Of a stretch of 64,000 bases of DNA, positions 485 to 64,000 are shown one piece after another. This DNA is from Bacteroidales bacterium UBA5429. Lineage in GTDB: Bacteria > Bacteroidota > Bacteroidia > Bacteroidales > WCHB1-69. The translations under genes were made by a program, and so were the position numbers. Location: contig DIRT01000020.1 in assembly GCA_002427605.1 (NCBI GenBank), positions 10,013 to 74,012 of the forward strand, given 5' to 3'. The stretch's first letter is position 1. Every line of letters begins with the position of its first letter. The notes below the pieces were generated by a model. It saw only the letters and a list, made by a program, of their open reading frames with translations. It was not told where the DNA came from and did not search any database.

Positions 485-838
485 TTAAAACTGAGAAGAA
501 ACTGCAACATATTTTACTTTTCCGCCAATAGCGGGATTCATTTTACAAACTTTAACCTCTGCATGAACCACCTGAGGATATTGTAATCGAATCATACTCA
601 ATATTTTAGAACATAGAGTTTCTAAAATATTAACAGGTCTCTCCATAATTTTTTTAATATCTTGATAAACAGATTGATAGTTGACAGTAAGCAAGACATC
701 ATCATGTTGCGATGCCTCACTGATATCAACTTTAATGGTCAGATCCACTTTGAAATGGGTACCAATAATTTTTTCTTCTGCAAAACAGCCATGGAATCCG
801 TAAAATTCCATTTCAGATAATACGATTTCACTTAACAT
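485..838 (-). CDS. folB: dihydroneopterin aldolase
   Basis: 117 aa. EFYGFHGCFAEEKIIGTHFKVDL...TVNYQSVY is the typical FolB pattern. Confidence 0.8.
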   Translation of the reverse strand: MLSEIVLSEMEFYGFHGCFAEEKIIGTHFKVDLTIKVDISEASQHDDVLLTVNYQSVYQDIKKIMERPVNILETLCSKILSMIRLQYPQVVHAEVKVCKMNPAIGGKVKYVAVSSQF

Positions 839-846
839 AATTCTAA

Positions 847-2652
847 TTATTCAATTTTTGTTGCCCGTTTTCTCTCTTTTTCATCCAATAAAATTTTACG
901 TAATCGAAGATTACGAGGTGTGATCTCCAAATACTCATCTTTATTGATGGCCTCCATATATTCCTCTAAAGATAATTTGATGGAAGGAGCAATTTTCATC
1001 TTCTCATCCGAACCGGATGCTCTCATATTTGTAAGTTTTTTAGATTTACAAACATTGACAATCAAATCATCTTGTCTGATATGTTCTCCAATCACCTGTC
1101 CGGTATATACCATCTCTCCCGGATCAATATAGAAATTGCCTCTATCTTGCAGTTTATCAATAGCATAAGCATAAGCCTGACCGGTTTCCATCGCAATCAA
1201 TGCACCGGCATGTCTGCCCGAAATCTCTCCCTTCCAAGGCTCAAAATCAAGAAAACGGTGTGAAATAATCGCTTCTCCTTCAGTAGCCGTGAGAATCTGA
1301 TTTCTTAATCCAATAATACCGCGTGAAGGAATTCTAAAATCGAGATGAATGCGGTCATTAATGGTGTCCAATGAGACTAATTCTCCTTTTTTTCTGGATA
1401 CATAATCGATGACTTTGCTTTCAAACCCTTCAGGTACCAATACTGAAAGTTGTTCAATCGGTTCATGGATCACTCCCTCAATCTCTTTTTTAATCACTTG
1501 AGGCTGACCTACTTGTAATTCATATCCCTCTCTTCTCATAGTTTCAATTAAAATGGAGAGGTGTAGAATTCCTCTACCGAAAACATTGAGCATATCTGGG
1601 GAATTGGTTTCTTGGATACTCAGAGCGAGATTTTTCTCCAGTTCAGCAAAAAGTCGGTCACGTAAGTGTCGGGATGTTACATATTTACCATCTTGTCCAA
1701 AAAATGGGGAAGTGTTGATAGTGAACAACATGCTCATAGTAGGCTCATCAATTTTGAAAGGATCTAACTGTTCAGGATTTTCAAAATCGGCAATTGTATC
1801 TCCGATATCAAAATCTTCCAATCCCAAAATGGCACAAATCTCTCCCGGATAAATGGGTTCTTTTTGCTTCTCTTTTCCCAATCCCTCAAAAACGTACAAT
1901 TCTTTCACCTTGTTGGGAATAACTTTCCCATTTCTTTTGATAATCGAAACATTTTGTCCCCAGGTTAAAGTTCCTCTTTTCAATCTTCCAATGGCAATAC
2001 GTCCCACATAAGAGGAGTAATCCAGAGAGGAGATCATCATTTGTAAATTCCCCTCTTCAGCCGGTTTTTGTGGAATATGGGTAATGATTTGATCCAAAAG
2101 ATAACTCACATCCTGAGTCGGGGTTTTCCAGGTTTCGCCCATCCAACCGCCTTTGGCAGAGCCATATACGGTAGGAAAGTCAAGCTGATCATCGGTGGCA
2201 CCCAGATTGAACATCAATTCAAAAACAGCTTCCTGTGCATATTCAGGATTACAGTTGGGTTTATCCACTTTATTGATGACTACAATCGGTTTTAATCCCA
2301 GTTCAATCGCCTTTTGGGTTACAAAACGGGTTTGGGGCATAGGACCTTCAAAGGCATCTACAACAATCAGAACGCCGTCAGCCATATTCAGTACCCGCTC
2401 CACTTCTCCTCCGAAATCGCTGTGCCCGGGCGTGTCTATGATGTTGATTTTGTAATCTTTATATCGTACAGCGACATTTTTGGACAAAATAGTAATTCCT
2501 CGTTCTCTTTCCAAATCATTACTATCCAAAGAGGATTGTTGTGCTTCCTGGGCTGTTCTGAATTGGTTGGATTGATAAAGTATTCTGTCAACCAAAGTGG
2601 TTTTGCCATGGTCAACGTGAGCTATAATTGCAACATTAATAATTTTCTGCAT
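847..2652 (-). CDS. typA: translational GTPase TypA/BipA
   Basis: 601 aa. G1 [17 protein letters not shown] and NKVD motifs, with TypA-type domain order. Confidence 0.95.
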
Positions 2653-2658
2653 CGGTAT

Positions 2659-3561
2659 TTATTTCTTTTTATTTCTAAGTTTTAATCCGGCTATTATGGT
2701 ATCCGGTTTCAAATTCATAACTGCTTTCATCTCTCCGGACATGCAAAAACCGCATGAATCACAGAGATTAAATATTTTGCCGCTACACTCCGCAGTTCGG
2801 GTTCCATCAATTTGTACAAAGTTGGACACGAAGCAATATTTATCGGTTATTTCCCCTTTCATGTACTTTAATCCCGATACGGAATTCATAATGGGAGCGC
2901 CCCTCTTTTTAAGCTGAATCACGTCATCCAAAACCTGCAATCTTTGTTCCGGTGTCAACATCAACTGTTCTGTTCCGGGGAATGGGGTGTGCAAATTGAT
3001 CGCGATCGATTTCAATTTCGGATGCGCTTCCACCCACTCAACTGCCTCTTTTATACCCTGATAGTTAATTTTGTTGACCACCATATTGGTGTGCATATTG
3101 GGGTGATTGGAGTCGCTAATATTTTTTTCTAACTTTTCAAAAGCTCCTTTTCCACGAATCGCATCATGCAGTTCCCCAATGCCATCCATACTGATCCAAA
3201 TAGAATTGGCTTTTAAATCCACAATAGGGAGTTGGGCATTGGTAGTCACGGTGGTGGTGAAAAACCCGATTTCGTGCGCCAGCGCAATCAAATCGTTGAT
3301 GTTTTTCTCATTTTCTCTCCACAATAGGGGTTCTCCCCCTTCAAAATCAACAAAACGGGACCCTAAATCGAAAGAGTATTGCAACTCTTCCCTAATTTGA
3401 GCATAGCTTTTGGAGATAATATTCTCTTTTTCATAGATTATGCAATGTTTACACTCCAAATTGCACTCATTGGTGATAAACAATACCGTTTGCAAAGGCT
3501 TTTTCTGACCTAAAAACCGAGTTTTAAAATACCAGTAAGGATGATAAAAGAATGATTTCAT
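2659..3561 (-). CDS. radical SAM protein (MoaA/PqqE-like core with a Cys-rich C-terminus), function unknown
   Basis: CNLECKHC cluster motif and C-terminal CDSCGFC. I chose the ATG at 3561 (MKSFFYHPYW) because it forms an ATGA overlap with the upstream stop, rather than the track start at 3600. Confidence 0.7.
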   Translation of the reverse strand: MKSFFYHPYWYFKTRFLGQKKPLQTVLFITNECNLECKHCIIYEKENIISKSYAQIREELQYSFDLGSRFVDFEGGEPLLWRENEKNINDLIALAHEIGFFTTTVTTNAQLPIVDLKANSIWISMDGIGELHDAIRGKGAFEKLEKNISDSNHPNMHTNMVVNKINYQGIKEAVEWVEAHPKLKSIAINLHTPFPGTEQLMLTPEQRLQVLDDVIQLKKRGAPIMNSVSGLKYMKGEITDKYCFVSNFVQIDGTRTAECSGKIFNLCDSCGFCMSGEMKAVMNLKPDTIIAGLKLRNKKK

Positions 3562-4562
3562 ATGGTATAAAACAGAGCGATGCCGACGTAAGTTAAACAA
3601 AAAAAGAGAACTAAATTTCTGGCGCTATACCAACGAAGCATAAACCAGTCGATCCCTGCCTGGGTAATCTCTTTCCATCTCTCCATCGGGAAGTGATACC
3701 AACGCCGTGAAATAGAGGAGGAAGGATCTTTTTGAAAGGCTAAAATGGATCGAAATAGGGATATGGCTATGGGTAATATCCATAATGTAATTAAAAAAAT
3801 GGGGGGAAGCATATTCAGAAGCACAAAGCAAACAATGAGCACAAAAGGAGAAAAAATAAACAGTGTTGAAAAGAAAGTGATCCACTTTTGATTATTCAAA
3901 ACGACCGCCAGCGTATTTTTGTGTATGGAACGATCCGCCTCAAAATCCATAACGGCATGGGTATACAAAATATTGATGACTAAAATTCCAACAATGCAGG
4001 AGATAATCAATCCGGGAACGGTTGTTGTTCCGGCAGCGGCGATAGATACTCCCTGCATGAGCAAAGGTCCAAATATAATTCCCAGTGTAATCTCTCCCAA
4101 CCCGATATAGCTCAATCTCAAGGGGGGAGCGGAATAGGACAGTGATAATAACGCGGTAATGAGCACGATAATTAAGAGGTTCACCCGTTGATCCCAACGA
4201 AAAACAAGAACAATCGCACCCATGAGCAAAGCAAACAGAGAAAAGAGTGATGCTGCAATAAATAATTGTTTCACTGTTGCCCGACCATCTTGAATATAAT
4301 CACATTTGGCAATCCGGGCGCGGATACCATTAGATGCCAGTCTGTCTCTGTATGAGGAGTCGTTCTTTTTGAGATCAAAGTAATCATCCCACAAATTAGC
4401 ACCCAAATGGGCGGACATCACCCCAAGCAGCGCGAAGACTGACAAAGTGAGAGAAAAAGAATCACTTCCGGCAGCGAAAAAAATGGCGACTAGTGCCGGT
4501 AAAGCACTTTGTGGCAGTGCTACAGAGCGTGCATTTCTGATCCAGGAGCTGATAACACTCAT
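3558..4562 (-). CDS. UbiA-family (MenA-like) integral-membrane prenyltransferase
   Basis: 334 aa and polytopic. NLWDDYFD matches the NxxxDxxxD prenyl-diphosphate motif, and the N-terminus is MenA-like (WIRNARSVALPQS). Confidence 0.7.
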   Translation of the reverse strand: MSVISSWIRNARSVALPQSALPALVAIFFAAGSDSFSLTLSVFALLGVMSAHLGANLWDDYFDLKKNDSSYRDRLASNGIRARIAKCDYIQDGRATVKQLFIAASLFSLFALLMGAIVLVFRWDQRVNLLIIVLITALLSLSYSAPPLRLSYIGLGEITLGIIFGPLLMQGVSIAAAGTTTVPGLIISCIVGILVINILYTHAVMDFEADRSIHKNTLAVVLNNQKWITFFSTLFIFSPFVLIVCFVLLNMLPPIFLITLWILPIAISLFRSILAFQKDPSSSISRRWYHFPMERWKEITQAGIDWFMLRWYSARNLVLFFCLTYVGIALFYTI

Positions 4563-4572
4563 TGGAGTAGTG

Positions 4573-4836
4573 TTATTCTTCAGTAGGGTTATCAGATTTA
4601 ATTTTGGGACGATACATAATGGCTACAATGCCCAAAATTAATCCAATCAACATCACTATAGGGGCAACAACAATACGGCGGGTATTAAAAATTTCCGGAT
4701 TGAAATGATTGGGATCTTCAGCAGCCCCACCAGATAAAAGAATATATCCTACAACTAAAAATAGGATACCCACTATCATGATGATGTAATTGATTCTTCT
4801 AAATATAGGTGGAGATTGTTTATTTTCTAATGACAT
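4573..4836 (-). CDS. small two-TM membrane protein (DUF3098-like, FtsX-associated)
   Basis: 87 aa with two hydrophobic helices, immediately downstream of ftsX as is common in Bacteroidota. Confidence 0.6.
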   Translation of the reverse strand: MSLENKQSPPIFRRINYIIMIVGILFLVVGYILLSGGAAEDPNHFNPEIFNTRRIVVAPIVMLIGLILGIVAIMYRPKIKSDNPTEE

Positions 4837-6741: not shown

Positions 6742-7440
6742 ATGAATAAAATCTCAACTTTACTCCAAAACTTATTTAATTTTTTTTATCCTCGTTTATG
6801 TGTTTCCTGTCAGAATACTCTTTTTGAAAAGGAGACCCATTTCTGTTTACACTGTTTGCAGAATATGCCATTAACTAATTATCACACTTTTGAAGAGAAT
6901 CCGTTGAACTATATTTTCATGGGAAGAGTACCCGTTCAGTTTGTAGGATCCTTACTCTTCTATAGAAAAGGGAATATGGTACAGTCTATATTACAGGAGA
7001 TTAAGTATAAAAACAACAAAGAACTGGGCTCTTATTTGGGGCATTTGTACGGAGAACAATTAGCCAAAACAGAACTTTTAAAAGATGTGGATCTCATTAT
7101 TCCGATTCCTCTTCACCCGAAAAAGGAAAAATTAAGAGGGTATAATCAGAGCGAAATGATAGCTCAGGGATTAAGTTCGGGCTTAAACAAAGAGTATAGC
7201 GTTGAATTTTTAATCCGAAAAGATTTCACTGAAACCCAGACCAAAAAGAGCAGAATCAATCGCTGGGAGAATGTCAAAGATGTTTTTGAAGTTCAAAACG
7301 AGGAGGGAATTAGAAATAAACATCTTTTAGTTTGTGATGATGTACTGACCACCGGCGCAACGATGGAGGCAGCTTTATCCAAGTTGGTGACTGTGGAAGG
7401 GGTTCGGGTTAGTGTTGTAACTCTGGCTGTGGCGGGTTAG
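6742..7440 (+). CDS. comF: ComF-family phosphoribosyltransferase-domain protein
   Basis: N-terminal CxxC...CxxC zinc-finger-like motifs and a C-terminal PRTase motif LLVCDDVLTTGAT. Confidence 0.8.
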   Translation: MNKISTLLQNLFNFFYPRLCVSCQNTLFEKETHFCLHCLQNMPLTNYHTFEENPLNYIFMGRVPVQFVGSLLFYRKGNMVQSILQEIKYKNNKELGSYLGHLYGEQLAKTELLKDVDLIIPIPLHPKKEKLRGYNQSEMIAQGLSSGLNKEYSVEFLIRKDFTETQTKKSRINRWENVKDVFEVQNEEGIRNKHLLVCDDVLTTGATMEAALSKLVTVEGVRVSVVTLAVAG

Positions 7441-9463: not shown

Positions 9464-10354
9464 TCATTGCTCTTGGTATCCAAACCGCTTCATCATCAGG
9501 TCTTGGTTGCGCCAGTCTTTGAGGACTTTGACGGAGAGGTCGAGATAGACCTGCTTTTCGATAAATTCCTCGATTGCTTTTCGGGATTCAATGCCCAATT
9601 GTTTGATGGCAGAGCCTTTGCTGCCAATCAGAATTCCTTTTTGGGTGTCCCGCTCGCAGTACAGCATGGCGCTGATTTGCACGATATGATCAGCTTCTTT
9701 ATAGCTATCTACCACTACCTCAACACTATAGGGAATCTCTTTTTTGTACAACAACAAAATTTTTTCTCTGATGATCTCGCTGATAAAAAAACGAACCGGC
9801 TTGTCGGTGAGCTGATCTTTTGGAAAAAATGGGGGAGAAAAGGGCAGGTGTTGGACAATCCTTTCCTGCAACCATTCTATTCCGATTTGGTGTAAAGCGG
9901 AGAGAGCAATCGACTCAATGTCCGGGAAAAGATTGGTCCAATATTGCTCTGTCTCTTTTACTGCTTCCGGTGTACTTTTATCGACTTTATTGATAATCAA
10001 TATTTTGGGAATTTTGCACTCTTGCAATTGAGTCATAATCTCTTCATTGAAGCGGGTTTCACCCACTTCAACCATCAACAAAATGAGGTCGGCATCGGTG
10101 AGGGCAACACGGATGAAGTGCATCATCATTTCCTGCATTTTATATGCCGGATCAAGGATTCCCGGAAGATCGGAATAGACAATCTGATAATCCTCTTCGT
10201 TGACAATACCCCGAATCCGATGTCGCGTAGTTTGTGCCTTATTGGTAATAATCGACAATCGTTCACCCACCAAAAGGTTCATCAATGTGCTTTTCCCAAC
10301 GTTGGGATTGCCGATAATATTTACAAATCCTGCTCTGTGTGTCTCTTGATTCAT
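9464..10354 (-). CDS. era: GTPase Era
   Basis: GNPNVGKST, DLPG and NKVD motifs plus a KH domain at the C-terminus. The start was moved to MNQETHRAGF (10354) to avoid overlapping queD. Confidence 0.9.
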   Translation of the reverse strand: MNQETHRAGFVNIIGNPNVGKSTLMNLLVGERLSIITNKAQTTRHRIRGIVNEEDYQIVYSDLPGILDPAYKMQEMMMHFIRVALTDADLILLMVEVGETRFNEEIMTQLQECKIPKILIINKVDKSTPEAVKETEQYWTNLFPDIESIALSALHQIGIEWLQERIVQHLPFSPPFFPKDQLTDKPVRFFISEIIREKILLLYKKEIPYSVEVVVDSYKEADHIVQISAMLYCERDTQKGILIGSKGSAIKQLGIESRKAIEEFIEKQVYLDLSVKVLKDWRNQDLMMKRFGYQEQ

Positions 10355-56007: not shown

Positions 56008-57978
56008 ATGACAAAATCAATTTACAGCAAATCTAAGATAAAAGGGTTGGAGGATTATGTTCAAATTACACCTGATAACCAAAGAACAGGCTCTTTTGAG
56101 AAAGTTCCAACTTGTATTTTCGATAATAATAAACTGATAGCAGAGGCGGTTGCCTTTGAAATAGCCTCGTTAATTCGTGCAAAACAGAAACAAAACAAAC
56201 CGGCAGTACTTGGGTTGGCAACAGGGTCAACACCCATCACTGTTTACGCTGAATTAGTGCGTTTGCATCGGGAAGAAGGATTGAGTTTCAAAAATGTGAT
56301 CACTTTCAATTTGGATGAATATTATCCCATGTCATCAAACTCTCAACAGAGCTATGTGCACTTCATGAATGAACATCTCTTTGATCATGTTGATATTCCA
56401 AGAGAGAATATCAACATCCCTAATGGAATGCTTAAAAGAGAAGAGATATCAGATTATTGTGCAGCTTATGACAGAAAAATTGAACAAGTAGGCGGTATTG
56501 ATATACAAATTTTGGGAATTGGAAGAACCGGTCATATTGGGTTCAACGAGCCCGGTTCTGAGATGAACTCTCCAACTCGCTTGATTGCGTTGGATTACGT
56601 GACAATTACTGATGCTGCATCTAACTTTTATGGAGAAGAGCATGTGCCAACGCGTGCGATTACCATGGGAATTTCAACAATTTTGAAATCCAAACGAATT
56701 ATTTTGATTGCATTGGGAGAAGGTAAAGCCAATGTTATTCAAAGGACGGTTGAAGGAGAGATCTCTTCTGAGGTTCCGGCTACATTCTTACAACATCATG
56801 ACAATACGATTGTTGTTCTGGATCAACCTTCGGCATCGGAGTTAACAAGAATTAAAACTCCGTGGTTAACCGATATTTGTGATTGGAAAGATCCACGATT
56901 GATGAGAAGAGCGGTAGTTTGGTTGTGTCAAAAGTTGGAAAAACCGATTCTGAAACTTACAGACCGTGATTATCGTGCATATGGAATGGGTGATTTAATT
57001 GCAGAAAGAGGTTCATCGAACAAAATCAATATTGAGGTATTTAATGGATTGCAAAAAACAATTACCGGCTGGCCGGGAGGTAAACCCAATGCGGATGATT
57101 CTTCCAGACCGGAAAGAGCACTTCCTTATCCCAAAAGGGTAGTGGTGTTCAGCCCGCATCCCGATGATGATGTGATCTCGATGGGGGGAACTCTGTCCAG
57201 ATTGGTAGAACAAGGGCATGAGGTACATGTGGTATATCAAACCTCAGGTGCCATTGCTGTACATGATGATGATGTAATCAGATATATTGATTTTGCTGCC
57301 CACTTTAATGAGAGAAATCAATTTGTACATGAGGATTCAAGTCACTTATTCAAACAAATAAAATCGGATATTGCCAGGAAAAAACCGGGTGATGCGGATA
57401 CAGAAGCGATCAGGAACGTGAAATTGTTGATCAGACAGGGTGAAGCAGAAGCAGCTTGTCGATTTTTGAATATTCCCCGAAAGAATGCTCACTTTTTAGA
57501 GATGCCTTTCTATGATACGGGAAGAGCTGCCAAAAAACCGCTTTCTGATCAGGATATCAAGCTGATTATCGATATTTTAACAAAAGTTCAACCGCATCAG
57601 ATTTATGCTGCCGGTGACCTTTCCGATCCGCATGGTACACACCGCGTGTGTCTGGAAGCCGTTTTAAAAGCATTGGATCAGTTGCAGAATGAATCCTGGA
57701 TGCTTGATTGTCGCATATGGTTTTACAGAGGCGCATGGCAAGAGTGGGATGTGGGAGATATCGATATGGCCGTACCAATCAGTCCCGATGAGCTAGTTGT
57801 AAAACGAAAAGCAATCTTCAAACATCAATCTCAAAAAGATAAGGCATTGTTCCCTGGATCGGATGAAAGAGAGTTTTGGCAAAGGTCAGAAGATAGAAAC
57901 AGAGCTACGGCAAAATTGTATAATCTGGTAGGTATGGCCGAGTACGAAGCCATCGAAGCCTTTGTCAGATGGAAATAA
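56008..57978 (+). CDS. nagB: glucosamine-6-phosphate deaminase fused to a LmbE/PIG-L-like deacetylase domain
   Basis: N-terminal half: LGLATGSTP...GIGRTGHIGFNEPGS (NagB). C-terminal half: VVFSPHPDDDVISMGGT (PIG-L motif). Confidence 0.88.
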   Translation: MTKSIYSKSKIKGLEDYVQITPDNQRTGSFEKVPTCIFDNNKLIAEAVAFEIASLIRAKQKQNKPAVLGLATGSTPITVYAELVRLHREEGLSFKNVITFNLDEYYPMSSNSQQSYVHFMNEHLFDHVDIPRENINIPNGMLKREEISDYCAAYDRKIEQVGGIDIQILGIGRTGHIGFNEPGSEMNSPTRLIALDYVTITDAASNFYGEEHVPTRAITMGISTILKSKRIILIALGEGKANVIQRTVEGEISSEVPATFLQHHDNTIVVLDQPSASELTRIKTPWLTDICDWKDPRLMRRAVVWLCQKLEKPILKLTDRDYRAYGMGDLIAERGSSNKINIEVFNGLQKTITGWPGGKPNADDSSRPERALPYPKRVVVFSPHPDDDVISMGGTLSRLVEQGHEVHVVYQTSGAIAVHDDDVIRYIDFAAHFNERNQFVHEDSSHLFKQIKSDIARKKPGDADTEAIRNVKLLIRQGEAEAACRFLNIPRKNAHFLEMPFYDTGRAAKKPLSDQDIKLIIDILTKVQPHQIYAAGDLSDPHGTHRVCLEAVLKALDQLQNESWMLDCRIWFYRGAWQEWDVGDIDMAVPISPDELVVKRKAIFKHQSQKDKALFPGSDEREFWQRSEDRNRATAKLYNLVGMAEYEAIEAFVRWK

Positions 57979-58017
57979 GGACAATTTCAACCTAGCCCAA
58001 CGTTTTATAGTTAGATT

Positions 58018-58327
58018 GGTTGTAGAGACAGGGCACAAGAGGTTCAAGTTACCGAGTGGGGAAATAGAATGACAAAAAAGGGGCGGATGTTCTGCCCCCC
58101 AATTATTTAAAATACCAAATAAGAAATAAGAAGTAAGAAATAAAGTCGAAAGTAAAAAGGCGAAAGTCGAAATCTGGGTTTTTGTGTATATAAAATACAA
58201 TTTATTGACAATCAGAATAATATAAAAAATCAAATAAATAAATTCTACCTTCTACCTTCTTCCTTCTACCTTGTAAAAGCGTAATTCGTAATTCGTAATT
58301 GATTTCCGAAATCCGAAATCCGAAATC
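58018..58327. repeat. mosaic intergenic repeat block
   Basis: Components:
- half palindrome TGTAGAGACAGGGC at 58021..58034
- G-run module (reverse orientation) at 58052..58116
- AAATAAG/GTCGAAA-type x8 at 58117..58172
- TTCTACC x4 at 58243..58270
- CGTAATT x3 at 58280..58300
- AATCCGA-type x3 at 58303..58327. Confidence 0.9.
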
Positions 58328-58368
58328 AAAAAAAATCCCCTGACAATCAGTGATCGCAGAGGATTTTT
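58327..58368 (-). terminator. rho-independent terminator of the LRR lipoprotein gene
   Basis: AAAAATCCCCTG pairs with CAGAGGATTTTT (12 bp, with one G-U pair on the minus-strand RNA), followed by a U-run. Confidence 0.65.
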
Positions 58369-58441
58369 GTTCACATAAAAAAGTAACTATGAACTTATAT
58401 ATTGGAAGAGTTAATGGTTTCTGTTTGTAAATTTTTTCTCT

Positions 58442-59044
58442 TTAACTGCCAGCATAGGGCACATCATTCTCTCCGTCATCATTGTAATAGTCAAATACTG
58501 TCCAATTTTTATCGGTTGCAATATTTACTTGCTCTTCAGTACACACGTTACTTTCATTGTATTGGGAGTTTGTTGCTATCACCCATATTTTGACATTATC
58601 TTCCGTCTTATGTTGGGGTAGTGACATCATCAGGCTTGTCATAGCTTCTCCGTTAATATCGTTTTCATAACAATACAAATTCCTTAAATATGGATTTTTA
58701 CTAACGTCTAACGATTTAACGACAAAGTTTCCCGAACAGTCAAGTATTGTGACTTTACCGTAGATAGTAATGGTTGAAGAACCAATTTCATAGCGTTTTC
58801 CTTCACCAAATTTAACATTGTTTTCACCGTTGTCTTTTTTTCCGTTGTTGTTCAGGTCAATCCATATGCCCTCTCTGTCAGGAATCAAAGCATCTATGTA
58901 CAGATAGATATCATGTCCGGCGGTCATTCCGGTCAAAATTGTCATTGAATACTTTTTTGATACATCATTATTTTCTTCATCTTTATTGCAACTCACGGCA
59001 ATAATCATCGTGAGGGCAAGTAATATTTTAATTGTTGTTTTCAT
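58442..59044 (-). CDS. lipoprotein with leucine-rich-repeat-like C-terminal half
   Basis: Start at MKTTIKILLAL with lipobox IAVSC. LDCSGNFVVKSLDVSKNPYLRNLYCYENDI is LRR-like. Confidence 0.5.
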   Translation of the reverse strand: MKTTIKILLALTMIIAVSCNKDEENNDVSKKYSMTILTGMTAGHDIYLYIDALIPDREGIWIDLNNNGKKDNGENNVKFGEGKRYEIGSSTITIYGKVTILDCSGNFVVKSLDVSKNPYLRNLYCYENDINGEAMTSLMMSLPQHKTEDNVKIWVIATNSQYNESNVCTEEQVNIATDKNWTVFDYYNDDGENDVPYAGS

Positions 59045-59132
59045 AATCCTCATTTTAAATTGTTTGCTTATTATACTTTTTTTAAGGTATTATATTAAAG
59101 CAAGTTGCGTTTTTTACAACTGCTGAGTTGTA

Positions 59133-60689
59133 TTATTTCACAATAATTTTAGCATTAAATTCTGTTCCTTTATCTGTATTTAGCTTGATGAGGTACATGC
59201 CTGCGGGCAAAGTAGAAATATCGTGATTGATCTCTGTACCGGTAAACTCGAATGCAGTCACTTCCGCACCCAGCATATTGTACATACGAACTAAGTAAGT
59301 TCCCTCTTCATTCATGCGTAAAGTGATGTTATCAGTGGCAGGATTAGGGAAAACTTTTAACTCACCATCCACAACTGTCTCCTCCACACCTACAGTACTC
59401 CATTCAGCATCGAAAACCAATCGGGTACTACCACCTCCATATAGTTCCATTGCAAAGCAAGCTTGTGTCCGGACAGGGTTAATATCTACAACAGGGCTAT
59501 AATAGCTATGATATGTTGAAGATAAAGAAGAAACATCAGCTACATAATCCCATTCATTGTCTCCCAGCGCATCGGTATAATGTTGTACCTTATAAATGAT
59601 AGTTACACCATCATCATTCCATTTTTTGTAAACGAGTAGGTAGTGGTTATAGGTCTTATCGTATGCTAAGTCGGCTTGTGTTTCGTCATAATTAGAACTG
59701 CTTGCCCCATACCAGTAATCTATATTATCCAGAGTGTGATCACTAAGACTGTAACCACTTTCAGGATAAATTTTTACAATATCCCAGTCATTTCCACCAT
59801 ATAAATTTGAGTAAACAATCATGAAATTGTATTGCTCATCCAGGGTGTTGTTGCACAACCATTGAATTTTTGGATCTATGGCTTCACTGGTGGATGAATA
59901 TTTTTTATTCACTTGCAGTACATTTGTAAGACTTGTTCCATCAGCTTTAGCTGCTACAAAGCCGATATTTTTTTCACTATCTTTATCCATTTCGAATACA
60001 ATGCCTACTTTAGGATAATAATAATGCTCATTTGCTTGCCCGATAGAGACGTCAATCAGACCAAATTCTGAATTTTCTTTAGAGTACAATATTTCAGAGC
60101 TAAAAGTAGTACCACCGTCTGTAGAATAAACATAATCTATATACCCTTCATTATACCAATTAGAACTGGCAGCAAAACCGATCACAAATGGTGACCAAAC
60201 ATATTCCGGCGAGCGGGCATTGGTAGATATGGCAACATCGTGGTTTACGGTATTACCATAACTATAGCTGTGTACAATAACTCCATTACTTCCATCGGCG
60301 TCCATTTTCATTAAACTCACTTGTGCGGTTCCTGTTGTTGTGTTATTATCCGCAAACACATACCAAAGATTCATGTTTGACGGATTGTCACCGGTAACTA
60401 CGATATCGCGTCCTCCTTGTTCACTACCCGAAGGGGTAATACCATGCATGATTTGACTGAAAGTTGCGCCCCCATTTGTTGAACGATAGATTCTTGTTTC
60501 ATCTTGACCAGACCCATATTTGTTCATCAGCACGTAGATCCAACCATTATCGGCTACTGAAATTTTAGGTTTGATCCAATAGTTAGAACTGCATTCATGT
60601 AATAGTATATCATCACCAAACTTTTGAGCTCCGGCGGAAAAAGTGAACGCAAAAAGGGCAATCAATAAAAAGTATAAATTTTTTTTCAT
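59133..60689 (-). CDS. BNR/Asp-box beta-propeller protein with a T9SS C-terminal sorting domain
   Basis: Signal peptide, Asp-boxes (RSTNGGATF, YSTDGGTTF), and a C-terminal LKVFPNPATDNITL...GMYLIKL...KIIVK. Confidence 0.7.
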   Translation of the reverse strand: MKKNLYFLLIALFAFTFSAGAQKFGDDILLHECSSNYWIKPKISVADNGWIYVLMNKYGSGQDETRIYRSTNGGATFSQIMHGITPSGSEQGGRDIVVTGDNPSNMNLWYVFADNNTTTGTAQVSLMKMDADGSNGVIVHSYSYGNTVNHDVAISTNARSPEYVWSPFVIGFAASSNWYNEGYIDYVYSTDGGTTFSSEILYSKENSEFGLIDVSIGQANEHYYYPKVGIVFEMDKDSEKNIGFVAAKADGTSLTNVLQVNKKYSSTSEAIDPKIQWLCNNTLDEQYNFMIVYSNLYGGNDWDIVKIYPESGYSLSDHTLDNIDYWYGASSSNYDETQADLAYDKTYNHYLLVYKKWNDDGVTIIYKVQHYTDALGDNEWDYVADVSSLSSTYHSYYSPVVDINPVRTQACFAMELYGGGSTRLVFDAEWSTVGVEETVVDGELKVFPNPATDNITLRMNEEGTYLVRMYNMLGAEVTAFEFTGTEINHDISTLPAGMYLIKLNTDKGTEFNAKIIVK

Positions 60690-60726
60690 GATTCGTTGTT
60701 TAAATTATTAAATATTTATTTTGGTA

Positions 60727-60773
60727 CAAATTTATACGGAATATTCGAGCGCATCAATCATATAAACATATGG
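60727..60773 (-). promoter_or_regulatory. promoter module P1: TAAATTTG -7 box, TTG at fixed spacing, and box CATATAAACATATGG
   Basis: -7 box at 60727..60734, CAA (TTG on the minus strand) at 60755..60757, box at 60759..60773. It lies 38 nt upstream of ATG 60689. Confidence 0.55.
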
Positions 60774-60857
60774 TTTTTTTATAAAAAAAATAAAAAGGGG
60801 GGACAGGTCAGGAGGGGGGGTGAGATGCTTCATTTGCTCTTCTCTGTTATCCGGTTG

Positions 60858-60904
60858 CAAATTTACTACTTACAATGATCTTTTTCAATGATATGAATAT
60901 ATGG
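60858..60904 (-). promoter_or_regulatory. promoter module P2 (orphan copy)
   Basis: -7 box at 60858..60865, CAA at 60886..60888, box GATATGAATATATGG at 60890..60904. Only a 26-codon ORF follows. Confidence 0.35.
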
Positions 60905-61133
60905 TTTTGTTAATAGTCGATAATTGACTTGGATGATTCTACCTCCGCAATCTTTGTTATAGGTTTTAGCTCATTGCTTTCACTGTTCTTTTAGTTTTCA
61001 TAAGCAAACGCCGGACGAAATATATTTAAATTTTCATATTTGTCCGACGTAGCTCTAAAAAAAGAAAACAAAGGGTGGGGTTATATATTCATTTAGTTAA
61101 ATTTACATTTGCATTGCTGTGTGATAATCAATT

Positions 61134-61937
61134 TTATTCGACATCTCTGATAGTCCAGAAATCAGCACAATTCTTACTCTTCAGATACGCATAAGGCATC
61201 CAGAAATGCCCGTTATCTCCCCATTCTTTTCCCCATGAGTTTCGAACAAGCAGCATTTTCTTTTCATCATCGTAACCAACGGCCATCACTGCATGACCAC
61301 CCAGCATTTGTTCTCCTTTTTCCGGGATGGGCATGATGCCGGTATTGCGAACCTCTTCACTCATAAAACTGGAATACACTGAAAAACCAAATACAAACGG
61401 GTATCCTTCAGCAAGACATGCACGCATTTCGTCCAATACTATCGGAATACGCCAATATGATAATATTTGATGATCCAGAGCCAGATCGTAGCATTTTTGG
61501 GGAGGCTTCTGAGTAAATTTGGATCCGGGTTTACTGTTTGCTCTGTAAGGCCATTCCTTTTCAGGACAAACACCTTGTTTGTTCAACGACTTGACTCCAT
61601 CTCTCAGATAAGCTCCACTATCAGAATATATTGTACCCAACATGACCCGTTCATTGTAATACAGGAAAAGCCTTGACAGTCTGAGGGTTTTCTTTTTGTT
61701 GAACTTTTTACTATATTCTATCGCTGCAATTAGTGCATTGGCAGTACAGCTACCCAAATTTCCCTGGTTGTAAATCGGAGGGCATTTTCTTCGGAGATCT
61801 ACTTTTATCGGTAAGCATTTAATTAGTTTGAGAGGTGCTTCATAAACATAGTCTCTATCGTCCGGGATATCAGGAAGCCATCCTAGTTTAGGCATTCTGA
61901 ATTTCCCTTTATTATTTTGTATTCTATTTTCACTCAT
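61134..61937 (-). CDS. papain-family (C1) cysteine peptidase without a signal peptide
   Basis: QGNLGSCTANA (Cys), GGHAVMAVGYDD (His), VRNSWG (Asn). The N-terminus is hydrophilic. Confidence 0.85.
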   Translation of the reverse strand: MSENRIQNNKGKFRMPKLGWLPDIPDDRDYVYEAPLKLIKCLPIKVDLRRKCPPIYNQGNLGSCTANALIAAIEYSKKFNKKKTLRLSRLFLYYNERVMLGTIYSDSGAYLRDGVKSLNKQGVCPEKEWPYRANSKPGSKFTQKPPQKCYDLALDHQILSYWRIPIVLDEMRACLAEGYPFVFGFSVYSSFMSEEVRNTGIMPIPEKGEQMLGGHAVMAVGYDDEKKMLLVRNSWGKEWGDNGHFWMPYAYLKSKNCADFWTIRDVE

Positions 61938-62090
61938 CTCTTTTTTGTTTTACTATAACACTTAACTTGCAAACTTTGATTAGTTTAACGTTTTTCCCTC
62001 ATTGCTGTTTCCTTGATGAATAGTCATTGATTCTCCTACAGCAATCAAACCAATTTTAACTTTAGGTTCACTTTAGGTGTTATTTCGCCA

Positions 62091-62137
62091 CAAATTTAGA
62101 CGGAATTGATGGATATATCAACCATATGAACATATGG
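62091..62137 (-). promoter_or_regulatory. promoter module P3 upstream of the C1 peptidase
   Basis: -7 box TAAATTTG at 62091..62098, CAA at 62119..62121, box CATATGAACATATGG at 62123..62137. It implies a leader of about 150 nt. Confidence 0.5.
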
Positions 62138-62177
62138 TTTTTTTATGATTAAAAAAATAGGGGGGAGCGAGGAGGGG

Positions 62178-62819
62178 TTATACTAATCGTTCCTTAATCG
62201 CTTTAATAACAGCTTCAGATTTGGAATTTACTGCCAGTTTACGATAAATGCTGTTGATGTGACCACACACAGTACCAATGGAAATATTGCAATGGTCAGC
62301 AATCATTTTGTAGCTATCTCCGGCAACAAGGCGTTTCAGTACATCCAATTCACGATTGGAAAGGGTGTACTCGTTTTGAATTTTATTGTTAGGAGAAGTG
62401 AAAAATTGGAGTACTTTACGTGCTATTTCACTTGACATCGGTGAGCCGCCATTTACCAACTCAATAATCGATTCAATAATTTGAACAGCAGATGCCTTTT
62501 TGAGCAAATAACCGGTGGCGCCGGCACGAAGTGCATCGAAAATCTTGTCGCGGTCCTCAACGACGGTGAGCATCATTACGTTGATGTCAGGATATTTGTC
62601 TTTGACCAAACGGGTGGCATCAATACCGGAAAGGTAAGGCATCTCAATATCCATCAGGATCACATCGGGCATTTCCGATTCGCAATTTTCAAGAATATTG
62701 CGACAATCGGGATATGCCCCGGCAAAACGTAGTTGTTCCGAACCTTTCACCAGGAAGGAAAGAGTTTCGCGCAACGCATCATTGTCTTCGTAAATGGTAA
62801 CCTTAATTTCTGATTTCAT
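62178..62819 (-). CDS. NarL/LuxR-family response regulator
   Basis: REC domain (DVILMDIEMP, phospho-acceptor Asp) plus a C-terminal LuxR HTH (LSNRELDVLKRLVAGDSYKMIADHCNISIGTV). Confidence 0.92.
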   Translation of the reverse strand: MKSEIKVTIYEDNDALRETLSFLVKGSEQLRFAGAYPDCRNILENCESEMPDVILMDIEMPYLSGIDATRLVKDKYPDINVMMLTVVEDRDKIFDALRAGATGYLLKKASAVQIIESIIELVNGGSPMSSEIARKVLQFFTSPNNKIQNEYTLSNRELDVLKRLVAGDSYKMIADHCNISIGTVCGHINSIYRKLAVNSKSEAVIKAIKERLV

Positions 62820-62872
62820 TTCTTTCCGGATTTACAATATATGAGAGCGCAGATATCTTTGTCAATCGATTG

Positions 62873-62919
62873 CAATAATAATACTTATGCTCTTTTTTCT
62901 CAATAATAGGAATATATGG
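62873..62919 (-). promoter_or_regulatory. promoter module P4 upstream of the response regulator
   Basis: Degenerate -7 box TATTATTG at 62873..62880, CAA at 62901..62903, box AATAGGAATATATGG at 62905..62919. Confidence 0.4.
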
Positions 62920-62946
62920 TTTTGTTAAATTAATAATTGACATAAA

Positions 62947-64000
62947 TTACTCTACATTAGCAATAAAAGTTATAACTGTTCCCTGACCAATATGAGATTG
63001 AACAATTACTTTTCCACCTACTTTTTCACCACGATATTTCATGTTGCGTAGTCCATTTCGTGTATTCTCCCGGGATGTGTCAAATCCTTTTCCGTTATCT
63101 TTTATCTTCATTTTTAAAACAGAATGAGAGAAAGAAAATTCAATTTTTGCCTCTGAACATTCGGAATATTTTGCCATGTTGTTTACTGCCTCTTTTGCAA
63201 TTAAAAACAGATTTCGACGCATATCCATTGAAATTTTTAAAGATGTTACATTATCGGGAACAATAATGGATAACTTCACATCTAACGGCTCCAAAAGCGG
63301 TATGGCATATTCCCTTATACGCACTATAATGTTGTAAAAACTATCGTTTTGAGGATTGACAGACCAAATAATATCATCCATCGATTCGAGCATGTTTTTT
63401 GCATTTTTTCCTATTTTGCTAAGCATCTCTTCTGCATTGGGACTGTCATCCAGTCGGGATTGCAATAAATCGCTCATAATAGAGATGCTACTGAGTGTAG
63501 AGCCAATGTCGTCATGCAAATCAGATGCGATTTTTGTACGAATTTGCAGTTGCTTTTCCTTGTGCCTCTTTCGGTTTAGATGTAGAAGATAACCAATAGC
63601 TATGATTGCGATAGATGCCAGCGATATAAACCACCATGTTCTCCAAAAAGCTTGCTTTACTCTGAATTCAACCGATTTGTTGTATCCTAACCAAACACCT
63701 TTGTATGAAACATCTACTATAAAACGATATTTCCCCGGTTTTAAGTTGGTGTAACGGGCTTCCAGTATAGTAGTTGGCGAATTCCAGTCATTTTCCAAAC
63801 CCTCTAGTTTGTACCGATAACGAACCTGGCTGTAATCCTCAAAACAGATTGCCGTGTAACCAAAAGTAATATTATTTCGATTGTACTTAACGGCACGCGG
63901 AGTTTCTCTTTTATAATAAGGATTCCAATCGAGAACCGGTTGACCGTTAATGCTGACTCTTTCAATAATTAAGTTCGATACACTGGATTGTGAATATTTT
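62947..64000 (-). CDS. sensor histidine kinase (Y_Y_Y domain, TM, HisKA_3, HATPase), C-terminal part; gene runs off the right edge
   Basis: The track start at 63798 is a TTG. My translation stays open to 64000 (...YSQVRYRYKLEGLENDWNSP is the Y_Y_Y motif). This is followed by a TM, an H-box IASDLHDDIG, and N and G boxes. Confidence 0.85.
   Translation of the reverse strand, partial: KYSQSSVSNLIIERVSINGQPVLDWNPYYKRETPRAVKYNRNNITFGYTAICFEDYSQVRYRYKLEGLENDWNSPTTILEARYTNLKPGKYRFIVDVSYKGVWLGYNKSVEFRVKQAFWRTWWFISLASIAIIAIGYLLHLNRKRHKEKQLQIRTKIASDLHDDIGSTLSSISIMSDLLQSRLDDSPNAEEMLSKIGKNAKNMLESMDDIIWSVNPQNDSFYNIIVRIREYAIPLLEPLDVKLSIIVPDNVTSLKISMDMRRNLFLIAKEAVNNMAKYSECSEAKIEFSFSHSVLKMKIKDNGKGFDTSRENTRNGLRNMKYRGEKVGGKVIVQSHIGQGTVITFIANVE

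Follow-up and report, generated by a model that had tools for sequence, protein, structure and literature searches.

To our knowledge, few transcription-factor binding motifs have been described for Bacteroidota outside polysaccharide utilisation. Inverted-repeat operators are known for NarL (7-2-7 heptamers), DosR/DevR (a 20-bp palindrome) and GacA/UvrY (an 18-bp palindrome), and at lux-box and tra-box promoters LuxR and TraR exert class II activation from an 18–20-bp palindrome near position −42. In the hybrid two-component systems of Bacteroides, kinase, receiver and AraC output are joined in one polypeptide that controls polysaccharide-utilisation loci. PorXY-SigP of Porphyromonas gingivalis is a two-component system tied to T9SS and controls the secretion machinery (PMC7712824). 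The tapA-tapB-tapC genes of the same organism specify T9SS cargo that has been connected with virulence and with the TPR protein TprA (PMC4674972, PMC10470040).

Here we analyse a 64,000-nucleotide stretch of contig DIRT01000020.1 of Bacteroidales bacterium UBA5429 (hereafter, the window), in which one promoter-associated box recurs four times next to the genes of a two-component system. A literature search found no description of the box motif or of this kinase-regulator system. All features described below lie on the minus strand.

A kinase-regulator pair of the NarL/FixJ type

The 3′ part of a sensor histidine kinase gene (62947..64000) runs off the window and encodes a Y_Y_Y domain, a transmembrane segment, HisKA_3 and HATPase_c (Pfam matches at 1.4e-12 for Y_Y_Y, 1.6e-10 for HisKA_3 and 3e-7 for HATPase_c). 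The full-length kinase found in the same species (loci L002 and L011) has 1053 aa and ends with HATPase_c. Its periplasmic part is homologous to the Bacteroides hybrid-kinase sensor domains 3V9F and 4A2L (E 7.5e-37 and 9.4e-33), and the kinase core resembles DesK/VraS. Together with the Y_Y_Y match, this homology identifies a periplasmic sensor of the Reg_prop/Y_Y_Y kind found in Bacteroides hybrid systems (BT4663; PDB 4A2L/4A2M, 3V9F), and suggests a periplasmic, possibly glycan, ligand. Reg_prop matches in the kinase itself were faint.

The adjacent gene (62178..62819) encodes a 213-aa response regulator of the NarL/FixJ type, in which a receiver domain (Response_reg, 4.7e-20, residues 7–118) with the phospho-acceptor aspartate motif DVILMDIEMP is followed by a GerE/LuxR-type helix-turn-helix (GerE, 9.3e-16, residues 152–207). 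The closest solved structures, VraR, NarL and DesR, match over the full length. None of the NCBIfam equivalog models reached its cut-off with the regulator (best, MctR, 128.6 bits against 300; NarL, 108 against 250), and the PorX model matched the receiver domain only, with 41 bits against a cut-off of 300. The regulator lies next to the HisKA_3 kinase, and every locus examined keeps the two genes in synteny. An earlier annotation, made from the letters of the window without database searches (the sequence-only reading), had recognised a kinase, a regulator, a C1 peptidase and a T9SS protein here, and Pfam bears out all four gene calls, including Peptidase_C1 and Por_Secre_tail.

Four copies of one box in the window

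The sequence AAAACCATAT(G/A)TT(C/T)(A/C)TAT..TTGA occurs in four minus-strand copies between positions 60727 and 62923. A search with the pattern AAACCATATRTTYMTAT returned exactly four matches in 64 kb (60760-60776, 60891-60907, 62124-62140 and 62906-62922), all on the minus strand, compared with 0.28 expected by chance; four matches were reached in none of 100 shuffles. Allowing up to 2 mismatches gave no further match in the 64 kb. Nothing resembling the box was seen in the other 62 kb of the window and no box was found in 10 kb beyond it, about 74 kb being covered in all. From 111 related sites, 4 of them from the window's own species, a 55-nt weight matrix was built; it gave 47.5, 38.3, 33.1 and 27.2 bits for modules P1 to P4, respectively. 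Every other position of the window scored below 8 bits, and in 20 shuffles of the window no position reached 0 bits.

In all four modules TTGA is followed, after exactly 19 nt, by an 8-mer ending in TTG, which is TAAATTTG in P1, P2 and P3 and TATTATTG in P4. The proposal of one architecture repeated four times on the minus strand with identical spacing is thus correct, as is its geometry on the plus strand, where the CAA lies 21 nt and the box 25 nt beyond the −7 box. Beyond the module ends proposed earlier, a conserved A-tract extends 4 nt further (P1, for example, ends at 60777, not at 60773).

Module P4 (62873..62923) occupies the kinase-regulator intergenic region and would drive the regulator gene, which amounts to autoregulation. 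Its A-tract and box span 62923-62900, with the dyad described below at 62921-62902, the −33 TTG at 62903-62901 and the −7 box TATTATTG at 62880-62873. Module P3 (62091..62141; dyad 62139-62120, −33 TTG 62121-62119, −7 box TAAATTTG 62098-62091) is located just behind the stop codon of the regulator gene and a C-rich/T-rich tract, and would drive the C1 peptidase gene. Module P1 (60727..60777; A-tract and dyad 60777-60754, dyad 60775-60756, −33 TTG 60757-60755, −7 box TAAATTTG 60734-60727) would drive the gene of a TapA/TapC-like protein and the lipoprotein gene that follows it. Module P2 is an orphan and is described with its flanks below. The region upstream of the kinase gene contains no box.

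The box is a dyad in fixed promoter register

The box had been described as two direct half-sites. Position-wise complementarity contradicts this and defines a 20-bp inverted repeat with 9-2-9 organisation and the consensus AA(C/T)CATAT(A/G)-WW-(T/C)ATATG(A/G)TT. Positions left free in the search pattern were nevertheless conserved and complementary to their partners (11A/14T, 18T/7A and 19G/6C), and the central dinucleotide was found in both orientations (TT in 64 sites, AA in 17). The P3 dyad is a perfect palindrome, AACCATATG-TT-CATATGGTT, with compensatory changes at 5C/20G and 11G/14C; in P4 the right half, CCTATTATT, is degenerate. The complementary free positions, the two-way centre and the compensation in P3 fit recognition by a symmetric dimer. 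Given its genomic linkage to the regulator gene, the conserved dyad is a putative dimer operator.

The promoter elements next to the dyad have the organisation described for Bacteroidota (−33 TTTG and −7 TAnnTTTG). The −7 boxes of P1–P3 agree with the housekeeping form, and that of P4 shows one departure. A TTG is present at the appropriate distance of ~19–20 nt upstream, and at all sites, those of relatives as well as those of the window, 20 nt separate TTG from the −7 box. The fifth −7 base, which the search pattern did not constrain, is T in 92 of 111 sites. The four modules therefore resemble, and probably are, housekeeping-sigma promoters of the −33/−7 type. A scan for E. coli-type promoters and terminators, a type of scan ill-suited to Bacteroidota promoters, gave counts at chance level.

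The estimated centre of the dyad lies about 42–44 nt upstream of the predicted start site (−42 to −44), and its right arm overlaps the −33 TTG by only 2–3 nt. The −33 TTG(AC) is intact in every site, so that a bound protein could occlude RNA polymerase, and the same regulator might act at the same operator as a repressor whose dimer covers the −33 element until a signal or a change in phosphorylation frees the promoter. The near-consensus −7 boxes would suit such a mechanism, and some LuxR-type proteins do repress from boxes overlapping promoter elements. However, a centre near −42/−43 with a 2–3-nt overlap is the classical geometry of a class II activator, response regulators with an operator before their own gene usually autoactivate, and strict N19 phasing is expected where the polymerase is contacted but is less needed for simple occlusion. 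We consider repression unlikely. An autoregulated regulon in which the regulator binds the dyad and activates in a class II-like manner is, in our estimate, the likely arrangement.

The box is linked to regulator orthologues in three orders

Regulator orthologues with 59–93% identity are present in Bacteroidales, Marinilabiliales and Cytophagales. Eight regulator loci (the window and L015-L021) were collected by protein identity alone, with no reference to the box. In 7 of the 8 the box, N19 and −7 box are found upstream of the regulator gene, and in 7 of the 8 they are found immediately downstream of it, always with the same spacing, which is the result of the comparison across relatives that had been proposed as a check. 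No further site of at least 5 bits was detected in L015-L021 (at least 8 bits in the window), and none precedes the kinase gene. The regulator-upstream box occupies the P4 position in L015, L016, L017, L018, L019, L021, L090, L094 and L137. The standard layout is kept in Mangrovibacterium (Marinilabiliales), and in Lacihabitans (Cytophagales), whose regulator has 59% identity, the regulator-upstream box is accompanied by a variant −7 box, TCACTTTG.

The similarity of the four copies in the window could in principle reflect nothing but recent local duplication, with no shared regulatory function, and the pairs P2/P4 and P1/P3 are indeed paralogous beyond the box. Between the pairs, however, conservation is limited to the box and the −7 box, and the box is kept across genera whose regulators are 59–80% identical while the surrounding DNA cannot be aligned. 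We therefore regard duplication alone as an extremely improbable account.

A metagenome scan with patterns that required a −7 box yielded 117 distinct sites; TAnnnTTG was part of the pattern, so the −7 box is present there by design, and since the patterns were derived from the sites themselves, the diversity of sites is underestimated. Regulator orthologues were directly flanked by 38 of the 117 sites, 24 lying directly upstream and 14 directly downstream, and 9 more lay within 4.2 kb of an orthologue on the same strand. Among 69 sites that could be judged, 47 were near a regulator orthologue and 22 had no adjacent regulator; the other 48 could not be judged. The genes downstream of remote sites encode almost exclusively exported or surface proteins, including lipoproteins, T9SS cargo, BspA-LRR, Big_2 and beta-helix proteins. 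A scan of the genome collection without the −7 requirement serves as a control through its chance matches, which have no −7 box at +19 nt. The box-alone pattern is too degenerate for AT-rich genomes and accounts for ~110 chance matches among those listed. T[AT]nnnTTG stood exactly at +19 nt in 7 of the ~119 matches listed, and in 6 of these 7 the contig carries a regulator orthologue.

Thus, a motif with dyad symmetry, in fixed register with the −7 box, is conserved in three orders and linked to orthologues of the regulator. A site that travels with the regulator across Bacteroidota is very probably the binding site of that regulator, which would control itself together with a changing set of secreted and surface proteins. 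Recognition by a different protein, either a dimeric transcription factor or an alternative sigma factor for which the kinase-regulator pair is merely one target, has to be weighed here. The 22 of 69 judgeable sites without a nearby regulator mean that linkage alone leaves room for such a factor, and recognition-helix residues showed no clean covariation with the C/T variant at box position 5. Against this, no other regulator gene is consistently adjacent, the flanking genes differ in every genus, and 38 of the 117 sites flank the regulator gene directly. The −7 box is of the housekeeping and not the ECF type, and a dyad centre occurring in both orientations does not suit a directional sigma element. 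Recognition by another protein is accordingly improbable, and binding by the linked regulator remains the reading we prefer. The cross-genus comparison thereby supports the core of the sequence-only reading, an activator-type site at the −33 element in an autoregulated kinase/LuxR-type regulon. Autoregulation, though, would concern the regulator gene and not the kinase gene, which is without a box.

Predicted target genes

The 267-aa C1 (papain-family) cysteine peptidase (61134..61937; Peptidase_C1, 3.8e-19) has no visible signal peptide at its N-terminus, and is in this respect an odd member of an otherwise exported regulon. Its gene is absent from the loci of the closest relatives, L020 and L028. 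At the loci of its closest homologues the box is missing and an I42 inhibitor gene accompanies the peptidase gene, as in L256 and L257, and this rules out the peptidase as an ancestral member of the regulon. The leader of the peptidase gene (61938..62038) consists of what is left, in decayed form, of the 3′ part of a chagasin-like (Inhibitor_I42) gene. Its DNA homology to L256 is 76% and begins ~95 nt into the I42 gene located ahead of the peptidase homologue in that locus, and at 61992-61948 tblastn finds a weak I42 remnant with in-frame stops. The peptidase thus appears to be a recent, species-level addition to the regulon, captured with loss of the inhibitor gene.

The gene downstream of P1 (59133..60689) encodes a 518-aa protein with a signal peptide and a C-terminal T9SS sorting domain (Por_Secre_tail, 2.2e-13, residues 446–517). 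It is a relative within the TapA/TapC family of T9SS-dependent outer-membrane proteins and not an equivalog: NCBIfam NF050177 matches residues 3–517 at 8.4e-85 with 285.5 bits, short of the equivalog cut-off of 500, and identity to P. gingivalis TapA/TapC is 31% over the full length. The BNR propeller identity assigned to it earlier has to be abandoned, the BNR match being 18 bits against a cut-off of 27.

A gene for a predicted 203-aa lipoprotein (58442..59053; lipobox AVSC) follows after 79 nt without a box of its own and is probably co-transcribed from P1. The lipoprotein has no Pfam or NCBIfam match, and the pair of a TapA-like and a 200-aa gene is also present in L028. By inspection, the unit is closed by a terminator-like hairpin with a T-run (58328..58366), which the terminator scan did not report because its loop exceeds 8 nt. 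The same hairpin and T-run follow the 200-aa gene, and the orphan box, in L020 and L028.

The orphan module P2 and turnover of the locus

Module P2 with its flanks (60841..60951; A-tract and dyad 60908-60885, dyad 60906-60887, −33 TTG 60888-60886, −7 box TAAATTTG 60865-60858) is a paralogue of the segment formed by the kinase end, P4 and the regulator leader. By blastn it matches 62964-62856 over 114 nt at 73%, and in the MAFFT alignment 88 columns are identical, among them those of the final 27 nt of the kinase reading frame and of the 17 nt that follow the −7 box. The upstream flank of P2 taken by itself is not significantly similar to the kinase 3′ end (z ~1.8, Smith-Waterman against shuffles); the relation to the kinase end is drawn from the co-linear 114–120-nt alignment of the whole module, which also bears out the P2/P4 similarity first noticed. 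The ~90-nt alignment of P1 with P3 is likewise borne out, C-run/T-run included.

The P2 −7 box and the P1 box are separated by an 80-nt remnant (60778..60857). It begins with sequence resembling the start of the regulator leader, continues with sequence resembling the regulator 3′ end and closes with a C-rich/T-rich tract. It can be aligned with the regions behind the regulator gene in the window, L028 and L020, and blastn matches run co-linearly between P2-P1 and P4-regulator-P3, so the remnant may mark where a second copy of the regulator would have been. The order of regulator stop, C-tract and box seen at P3 recurs in L020 and L028, and P1 itself is orthologous to the module directly behind the regulator in these two relatives. 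The suggestion that P2 is a relic of a deleted or duplicated regulator copy thus gains support twice, from the co-linear paralogy with the kinase end, P4 and regulator-leader start, and from relatives in which a P1-type module directly follows the regulator. P2 is a paralogue of the entire kinase-regulator intergenic region, and probably a deletion relic.

A terminator scan of 60778..60857 found none, and transcription from P2 may therefore continue into P1 and the TapA-like gene. An Rfam search of 57900-64000 with E up to 0.1 matched no RNA family and so gives no evidence for a known RNA in P2 or in the long peptidase leader.

In the window, L020 and L028 some modules are orphans, and modules delimit the duplications or deletions. 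This might also be expected of a short mobile or recombinogenic repeat (MITE-like, or a recombinase site) whose likeness to a promoter is incidental. A generic dispersed repeat would have many intergenic copies and no fixed relation to genes, and a finding of this kind would have undone the regulatory reading. Instead, there are 4 copies within 2.2 kb in the window and 1–3 per locus in relatives, with none elsewhere in ~74 kb, each in register with a −7 box. The modules always face the downstream gene, the 19-nt register is invariant across three orders, conservation between genera does not extend to the flanks of the 51-nt core, the locus has no called recombinase or transposase gene, and ordinary homologous recombination between paralogous promoters explains the turnover. 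A mobile element is therefore a very improbable explanation.

Discussion

We propose that the kinase senses a periplasmic ligand through its double-propeller/Y_Y_Y domain, in the manner of the Bacteroides hybrid glycan sensors, and would phosphorylate the NarL-type regulator, a dimer of which would bind the dyad and bring about class II (lux-box-like) activation. Because the kinase gene has no box, P4 would autoregulate, positively, the regulator alone. P3 would turn on the C1 peptidase recently captured without its inhibitor, and P1 the TapA/TapC-like T9SS outer-membrane protein and the lipoprotein. P2, a P4 duplicate that would have survived the loss of the second regulator copy, may serve as a second, upstream promoter of the P1 operon.

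We advance a broader interpretation more tentatively, as a possibility somewhat short of even. The dyad would be the operator of an uncharacterised two-component system of three Bacteroidota orders, with a nearly invariant regulator helix-turn-helix, and on a periplasmic glycan-type signal this system would directly switch surface and T9SS-secreted proteins. The 50–90-nt module would form a portable socket at which homologous recombination adds or removes regulon genes and leaves orphan modules behind; the gene captured here would be that of the C1 peptidase, without its chagasin-like inhibitor. The regulon would have grown to a dozen or more surface-protein promoters in certain lineages, for example those of Lentimicrobiaceae-type metagenome contigs.

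A 20-bp operator in fixed −7 register would make the regulon readable from sequence in any genome that carries the system. Its predicted targets (TapA/TapC-type cargo, BspA-like LRR and Big_2 adhesin-like proteins, lipoproteins) are of a kind that shapes interactions with host and community. The locus also illustrates how regulon members can be gained and lost through recombination at a promoter module, and the likeness of the sensor to hybrid glycan sensors suggests a class of ligand.

The system resembles NarL/FixJ systems in its REC-GerE regulator and adjacent HisKA_3 kinase, and a 9-2-9 dyad with a 2-nt centre is what is expected for a GerE-domain dimer. However, AAYCATATA-WW-TATATGRTT matches none of the NarL, DosR/DevR and GacA/UvrY operators, and the sensor is a periplasmic double propeller of ~800 aa in place of the four-helix bundle of NarX-type kinases. 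As in lux-box promoters, a 20-bp palindrome overlaps the upstream promoter element in strict downstream register, with a GerE-type dimer that is putative here. Unlike LuxR and TraR, the regulator is of the phosphorylation-controlled kind, with a REC domain and no acyl-homoserine-lactone-binding domain, and its promoters are of the Bacteroidota −33/−7 type, not −35/−10.

The sensor is shared with Bacteroides hybrid systems, but receiver and AraC output are not fused to the kinase: the core is of the HisKA_3 (DesK-like) type, the NarL-type regulator is a protein of its own, and the predicted targets comprise surface and secreted proteins instead of SusC/D loci. As with P. gingivalis tap, the 518-aa target belongs to the TapA/TapC family, and relatives carry tandem units of TapA-like, 200-aa and TapC-like genes. 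We rejected the P. gingivalis tapA/tapC locus as a known instance of the system, since it has no adjacent kinase, regulator or dyad box; a different, triple direct repeat lies upstream of both tap genes, and identity is only ~31%. PorX does not belong to the DNA-binding NarL-type proteins and controls secretion-machinery genes via the ECF sigma factor SigP, whereas the system described here is predicted to target the housekeeping-type promoters of cargo and surface-protein genes directly. The known T9SS regulation is directed at the secretion machinery, and the control predicted here at the secreted and surface proteins themselves.

Promoter modules and their operator-like box

The 17-mer AAACCATATRTTYMTAT has exactly four exact matches in the 64 kb of the window, all on the minus strand, at 60760-76, 60891-907, 62124-40 and 62906-22 (promoter modules P1 to P4, respectively). 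No further copy was found in the 64 kb with two mismatches tolerated. By chance, 0.28 copies are expected, and none of 100 shuffles reached four. Every copy runs on into TTGA, exactly 19 nt and an 8-mer ending in TTG, which is TAAATTTG in P1, P2 and P3 and TATTATTG in P4. Bacteroidota housekeeping promoters consist of a -33 TTG and a -7 TAnnTTTG; this is the layout of the box copies with their TTGA, 19-nt spacer and 8-mer. The window and its shuffled versions were scored with a 55-nt weight matrix built from related sites. P1-P4 scored 27-47 bits; all other window positions stayed under 8 bits, and the 20 shuffled windows under 0 bits. Thus, the four identically spaced minus-strand modules of the sequence-only reading were recovered, and its pairing of P1 with P3 and of P2 with P4 was borne out by sequence alignments.

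A metagenome collection was scanned with the box, the 19-nt spacer and TAnnnTTG, which yielded 114 contig stretches with 127 sites, 117 of them distinct. Box positions left free in the search pattern were analyzed in 111 sites: A occupies position 11 and T position 14 in 95 sites each, T occupies position 18 in 103 and G position 19 in 96. Search-free positions are, then, still conserved and complementary to each other. The consensus from the 111 sites is AATCATATA-WW-TATATGATT, followed by GAC, and the box centre occurs in both orientations (ATTT in 64 sites, AAAT in 17). P3, AACCATATG-TT-CATATGGTT, is perfectly palindromic, both of its arms bearing compensatory changes. The complementary free positions, the two-way centre and the palindromic P3 together reveal a 9-2-9 dyad rather than the two direct half-sites that had been proposed; the direct-repeat reading arose because CATATG is self-complementary. 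A 9-2-9 dyad is the layout expected for a GerE-domain dimer. Judging from the spacing, the dyad would be centred near -42 to -44 if transcription begins a few nucleotides beyond the -7 box, and this is where class II (lux-box-like) sites lie.

Genes of the locus

All genes of the locus are on the minus strand. First comes a histidine kinase gene, of which the window contains the 3' part (62947 to beyond 64000; Y_Y_Y, HisKA_3 and HATPase_c domains); it is followed by genes for a 213-aa response regulator (62178-62819; REC and GerE domains), a C1 peptidase (61134-61937), a T9SS sorting-domain protein of 518 aa (59133-60689) and a 203-aa lipoprotein-like protein (58442-59053). The VraR, NarL and DesR structures are full-length matches of the regulator, which reaches none of the NCBIfam equivalog cut-offs. 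The full-length kinase from the same species has 1053 aa. Homologues of its periplasmic part are the sensor domains known from Bacteroides hybrid two-component systems (3V9F and 4A2L/4A2M, the latter being BT4663), and its core is similar to DesK and VraS. Kinase and regulator therefore form a two-protein system of the classical kind, with a sensor of the hybrid-system type. The ligand could reasonably be guessed to be periplasmic and glycan-like. The 518-aa protein had been taken for a BNR protein, a match that stays below threshold. It belongs to the TapA/TapC family of T9SS-dependent outer-membrane proteins; it shares 31% identity with the P. gingivalis TapA/TapC protein and matches NF050177 with an E-value of 8e-85, below the equivalog cut-off.

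A near-consensus E. coli-type promoter match, TTGACA-18-TATATT (11/12), was observed on the minus strand at 62836-62865, downstream of the P4 -7 box and ahead of the regulator start codon. It could serve the regulator as an additional, basal promoter; the P2 paralogue has no counterpart of it.

Conservation of the system and its linkage to the regulator

Regulator homologues with 70-93% identity were found in Lentimicrobiaceae, Bacteroides pyogenes, Petrimonas, Paludibacter, Tannerella, Proteiniphilum, Mangrovibacterium and Draconibacterium. Seven loci (L015-L021) were picked via the regulator protein alone, without use of the box. Kinase-regulator synteny is kept in all seven, and the flanking genes vary. 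When the window is included, the box with TTGA-N19 and the -7 element is present in the kinase-regulator intergenic region of seven of the eight loci, and a box lies directly behind the regulator gene in seven of eight. No further position in L015-L021 reaches 5 bits, and no box precedes the kinase gene in these loci or in the window and its flank. Lacihabitans (Cytophagales) has the same layout with a 59% identical regulator and a variant -7 box, TCACTTTG, at the regulator-upstream site. Since Mangrovibacterium belongs to Marinilabiliales, the carriers span at least three orders and two classes of Bacteroidota. Both the regulator helix-turn-helix and the operator geometry are nearly invariant across the three orders.

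Among the 117 distinct metagenome sites, 24 are directly upstream and 14 directly downstream of a regulator orthologue, and 9 more are located within 4.2 kb of one on the same strand. There is no adjacent regulator at 22 sites with flanks long enough to tell; for 48, adjacency could not be judged. A scan of a genome collection with the box alone was dominated by chance matches in AT-rich genomes and could be used as a control. Among the matches listed, only 7 of about 119 had T[AT]nnnTTG at exactly +19 nt, and 6 of these 7 were on regulator-bearing contigs (Tannerella sp., Fermentimonas, Ca. Limimorpha and a Bacteroidota MAG with a 96% identical regulator). That a different protein binds the box is improbable; still less probable is that the modules are a mobile or recombination element, and least of all that they are functionless recent duplicates. 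Each of these is disfavoured by the register of the sites, their copy number, the cross-genus conservation and the linkage.

Genes downstream of remote sites code almost exclusively for exported proteins: Big_2/Ig, BspA-type LRR_5 and beta-helix proteins, Por_Secre_tail cargo and small lipoprotein families. The Tannerella contig has a second site about 20 kb from the regulator, upstream of genes for a lipoprotein and a BspA-like LRR protein. Many remote sites stem from a handful of metagenome projects, among them one that yielded a site-bearing Lentimicrobiaceae MAG (L110); in these projects remote sites outnumber regulator-adjacent ones about 10:1, as counted from contig names and regulator matches. 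For these projects, which are represented by metagenome contigs, this hints at a large regulon.

The genes behind the post-regulator box differ. In B. pyogenes (L015 7775-10672) and in some metagenome contigs (L146) it precedes a hybrid kinase of about 965 aa with TPR, HisKA, HATPase, REC and AraC domains, an arrangement that points to a regulatory cascade. L256, a locus without the box, has a comparable hybrid kinase gene (715-3663) upstream of its DUF6345, I42 and C1-peptidase genes. In Petrimonas and Mangrovibacterium (L016 7710-14636, L018 7929-14636, L017 10914-14642) the box is followed by two genes, the first for an outer-membrane-like protein (about 565 aa), the second for a giant protein (over 1900-2500 aa) that contains CarboxypepD_reg-like domains. 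In Tannerella, too, a giant protein gene is near the kinase-regulator pair.

Gene gain and loss around the modules

In the closest relatives, L020 and L028 (regulator 93% and 96% identical), a C-rich/T-rich tract, the box and a TapA-like gene come after the regulator stop codon, and neither locus contains the peptidase gene. Compared with them, the window has an insert of about 1.3 kb between 62117 and 60803, which carries the peptidase and is flanked by the duplicated C-tract and box, now P3 and P1. Homologues of the peptidase have a chagasin-like Inhibitor_I42 gene 7 nt upstream (L256 5691-5993, L257 5665-5994), which is normally the arrangement for this type of C1 peptidase; no box was found at their loci. 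The peptidase leader in the window (62038-61938) is a decayed remnant of the inhibitor gene, a pseudogenised 3' stub of about 95 nt. The absence of the insert from relatives and the inhibitor stub indicate that the peptidase is a recent recruit that lost its inhibitor, and it would be made without this partner.

P2 aligns with P4 over about 114-120 nt, a stretch that takes in the final 27 nt of the kinase coding sequence and, past the -7 box, the next 17 nt. The 80 nt behind P2 pass into a stretch that resembles the 3' end of the regulator gene, then into the C-tract and P1. The earlier view of P2 as a relic of a duplicated or deleted regulator copy agrees with this order: a unit of kinase end, P4, regulator and C-tract would have been duplicated by recombination and the second regulator copy then deleted. 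Campbell-type integration via regulator-gene homology would, we infer, give exactly the P2-P1 order. Since no terminator was found between P2 and P1, P2 may act as a second promoter of the P1 operon.

Orphan modules are also present in L020 (10351-10560) and L028 (3538-3330, minus strand), where a box-promoter behind the last TapA-like gene runs straight into a 3' untranslated region and terminator matching those after the 203-aa gene of the window. An orphan box-promoter is kept in at least five contigs (L020, L028, L149, L173 and L236). In L020 and L028 its predicted transcript would be about 130 nt long and end at the conserved terminator hairpin; the module represents a small regulated RNA or, alternatively, the footprint of a deletion.

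Just past the window end, upstream of the kinase gene (L001 5445-6687), three small ORFs (125, 49 and 232 aa) are pieces of a TapA/TapC-like paralogue that has decayed, 73% and 67% identical to window DNA at 60690-60213 and 59867-59133. L020 has an intact 523-aa gene at this position (3195-4766). No box precedes the paralogue in L001 or L020. Between the convergent lipoprotein and NagB/PIG-L genes (58117-58327) there are five consecutive 7-nt tandem-repeat arrays (AAATAAG x3.9, AAAGTCG x4.4, TTCTACC x4.3, CGTAATT x3 and TCCGAAA x3.3); related arrays occupy the same place in L020 and L028.

Discussion

In the best-supported reading, which we consider likely, the kinase would sense a periplasmic ligand, and a dimer of the phosphorylated regulator would bind the dyad and activate P4, P3 and P1, possibly together with P2. 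Activation of P4 would raise the regulator only, as positive feedback. The main rival, in which the same regulator represses through the same dyad, draws on the -33 TTG being intact in every site; we regard it as rather unlikely. Three features are moderately surprising: the near-invariance of the regulator helix-turn-helix and operator geometry over three orders, the apparent control of surface and T9SS cargo genes, and a promoter module visibly involved in gene gain and loss.

Full-text searches that included the motif strings uncovered no account of either the motif or the system in a library that takes in a minority of subscription journals. Both the kinase-regulator pair and the box are missing from the tap locus of P. 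gingivalis. In P. gingivalis CP024598, paralogous regions upstream of both TapA/TapC-family genes (~7290-7370 and ~9690-9770) each contain three direct repeats TGCG(C/T)GATTTGT(T/C)CAA, which look like a different operator-like element serving the same cargo family. The system described here is unrelated to PorXY-SigP beyond the receiver domain, is not a hybrid two-component system and is an instance of none of the named NCBIfam equivalogs. Its domain architecture places it in the NarL/FixJ family, and its proposed mode of action, a dimer on a palindromic operator at the class II position, would likewise be that of NarL/DosR/LuxR-type regulators.
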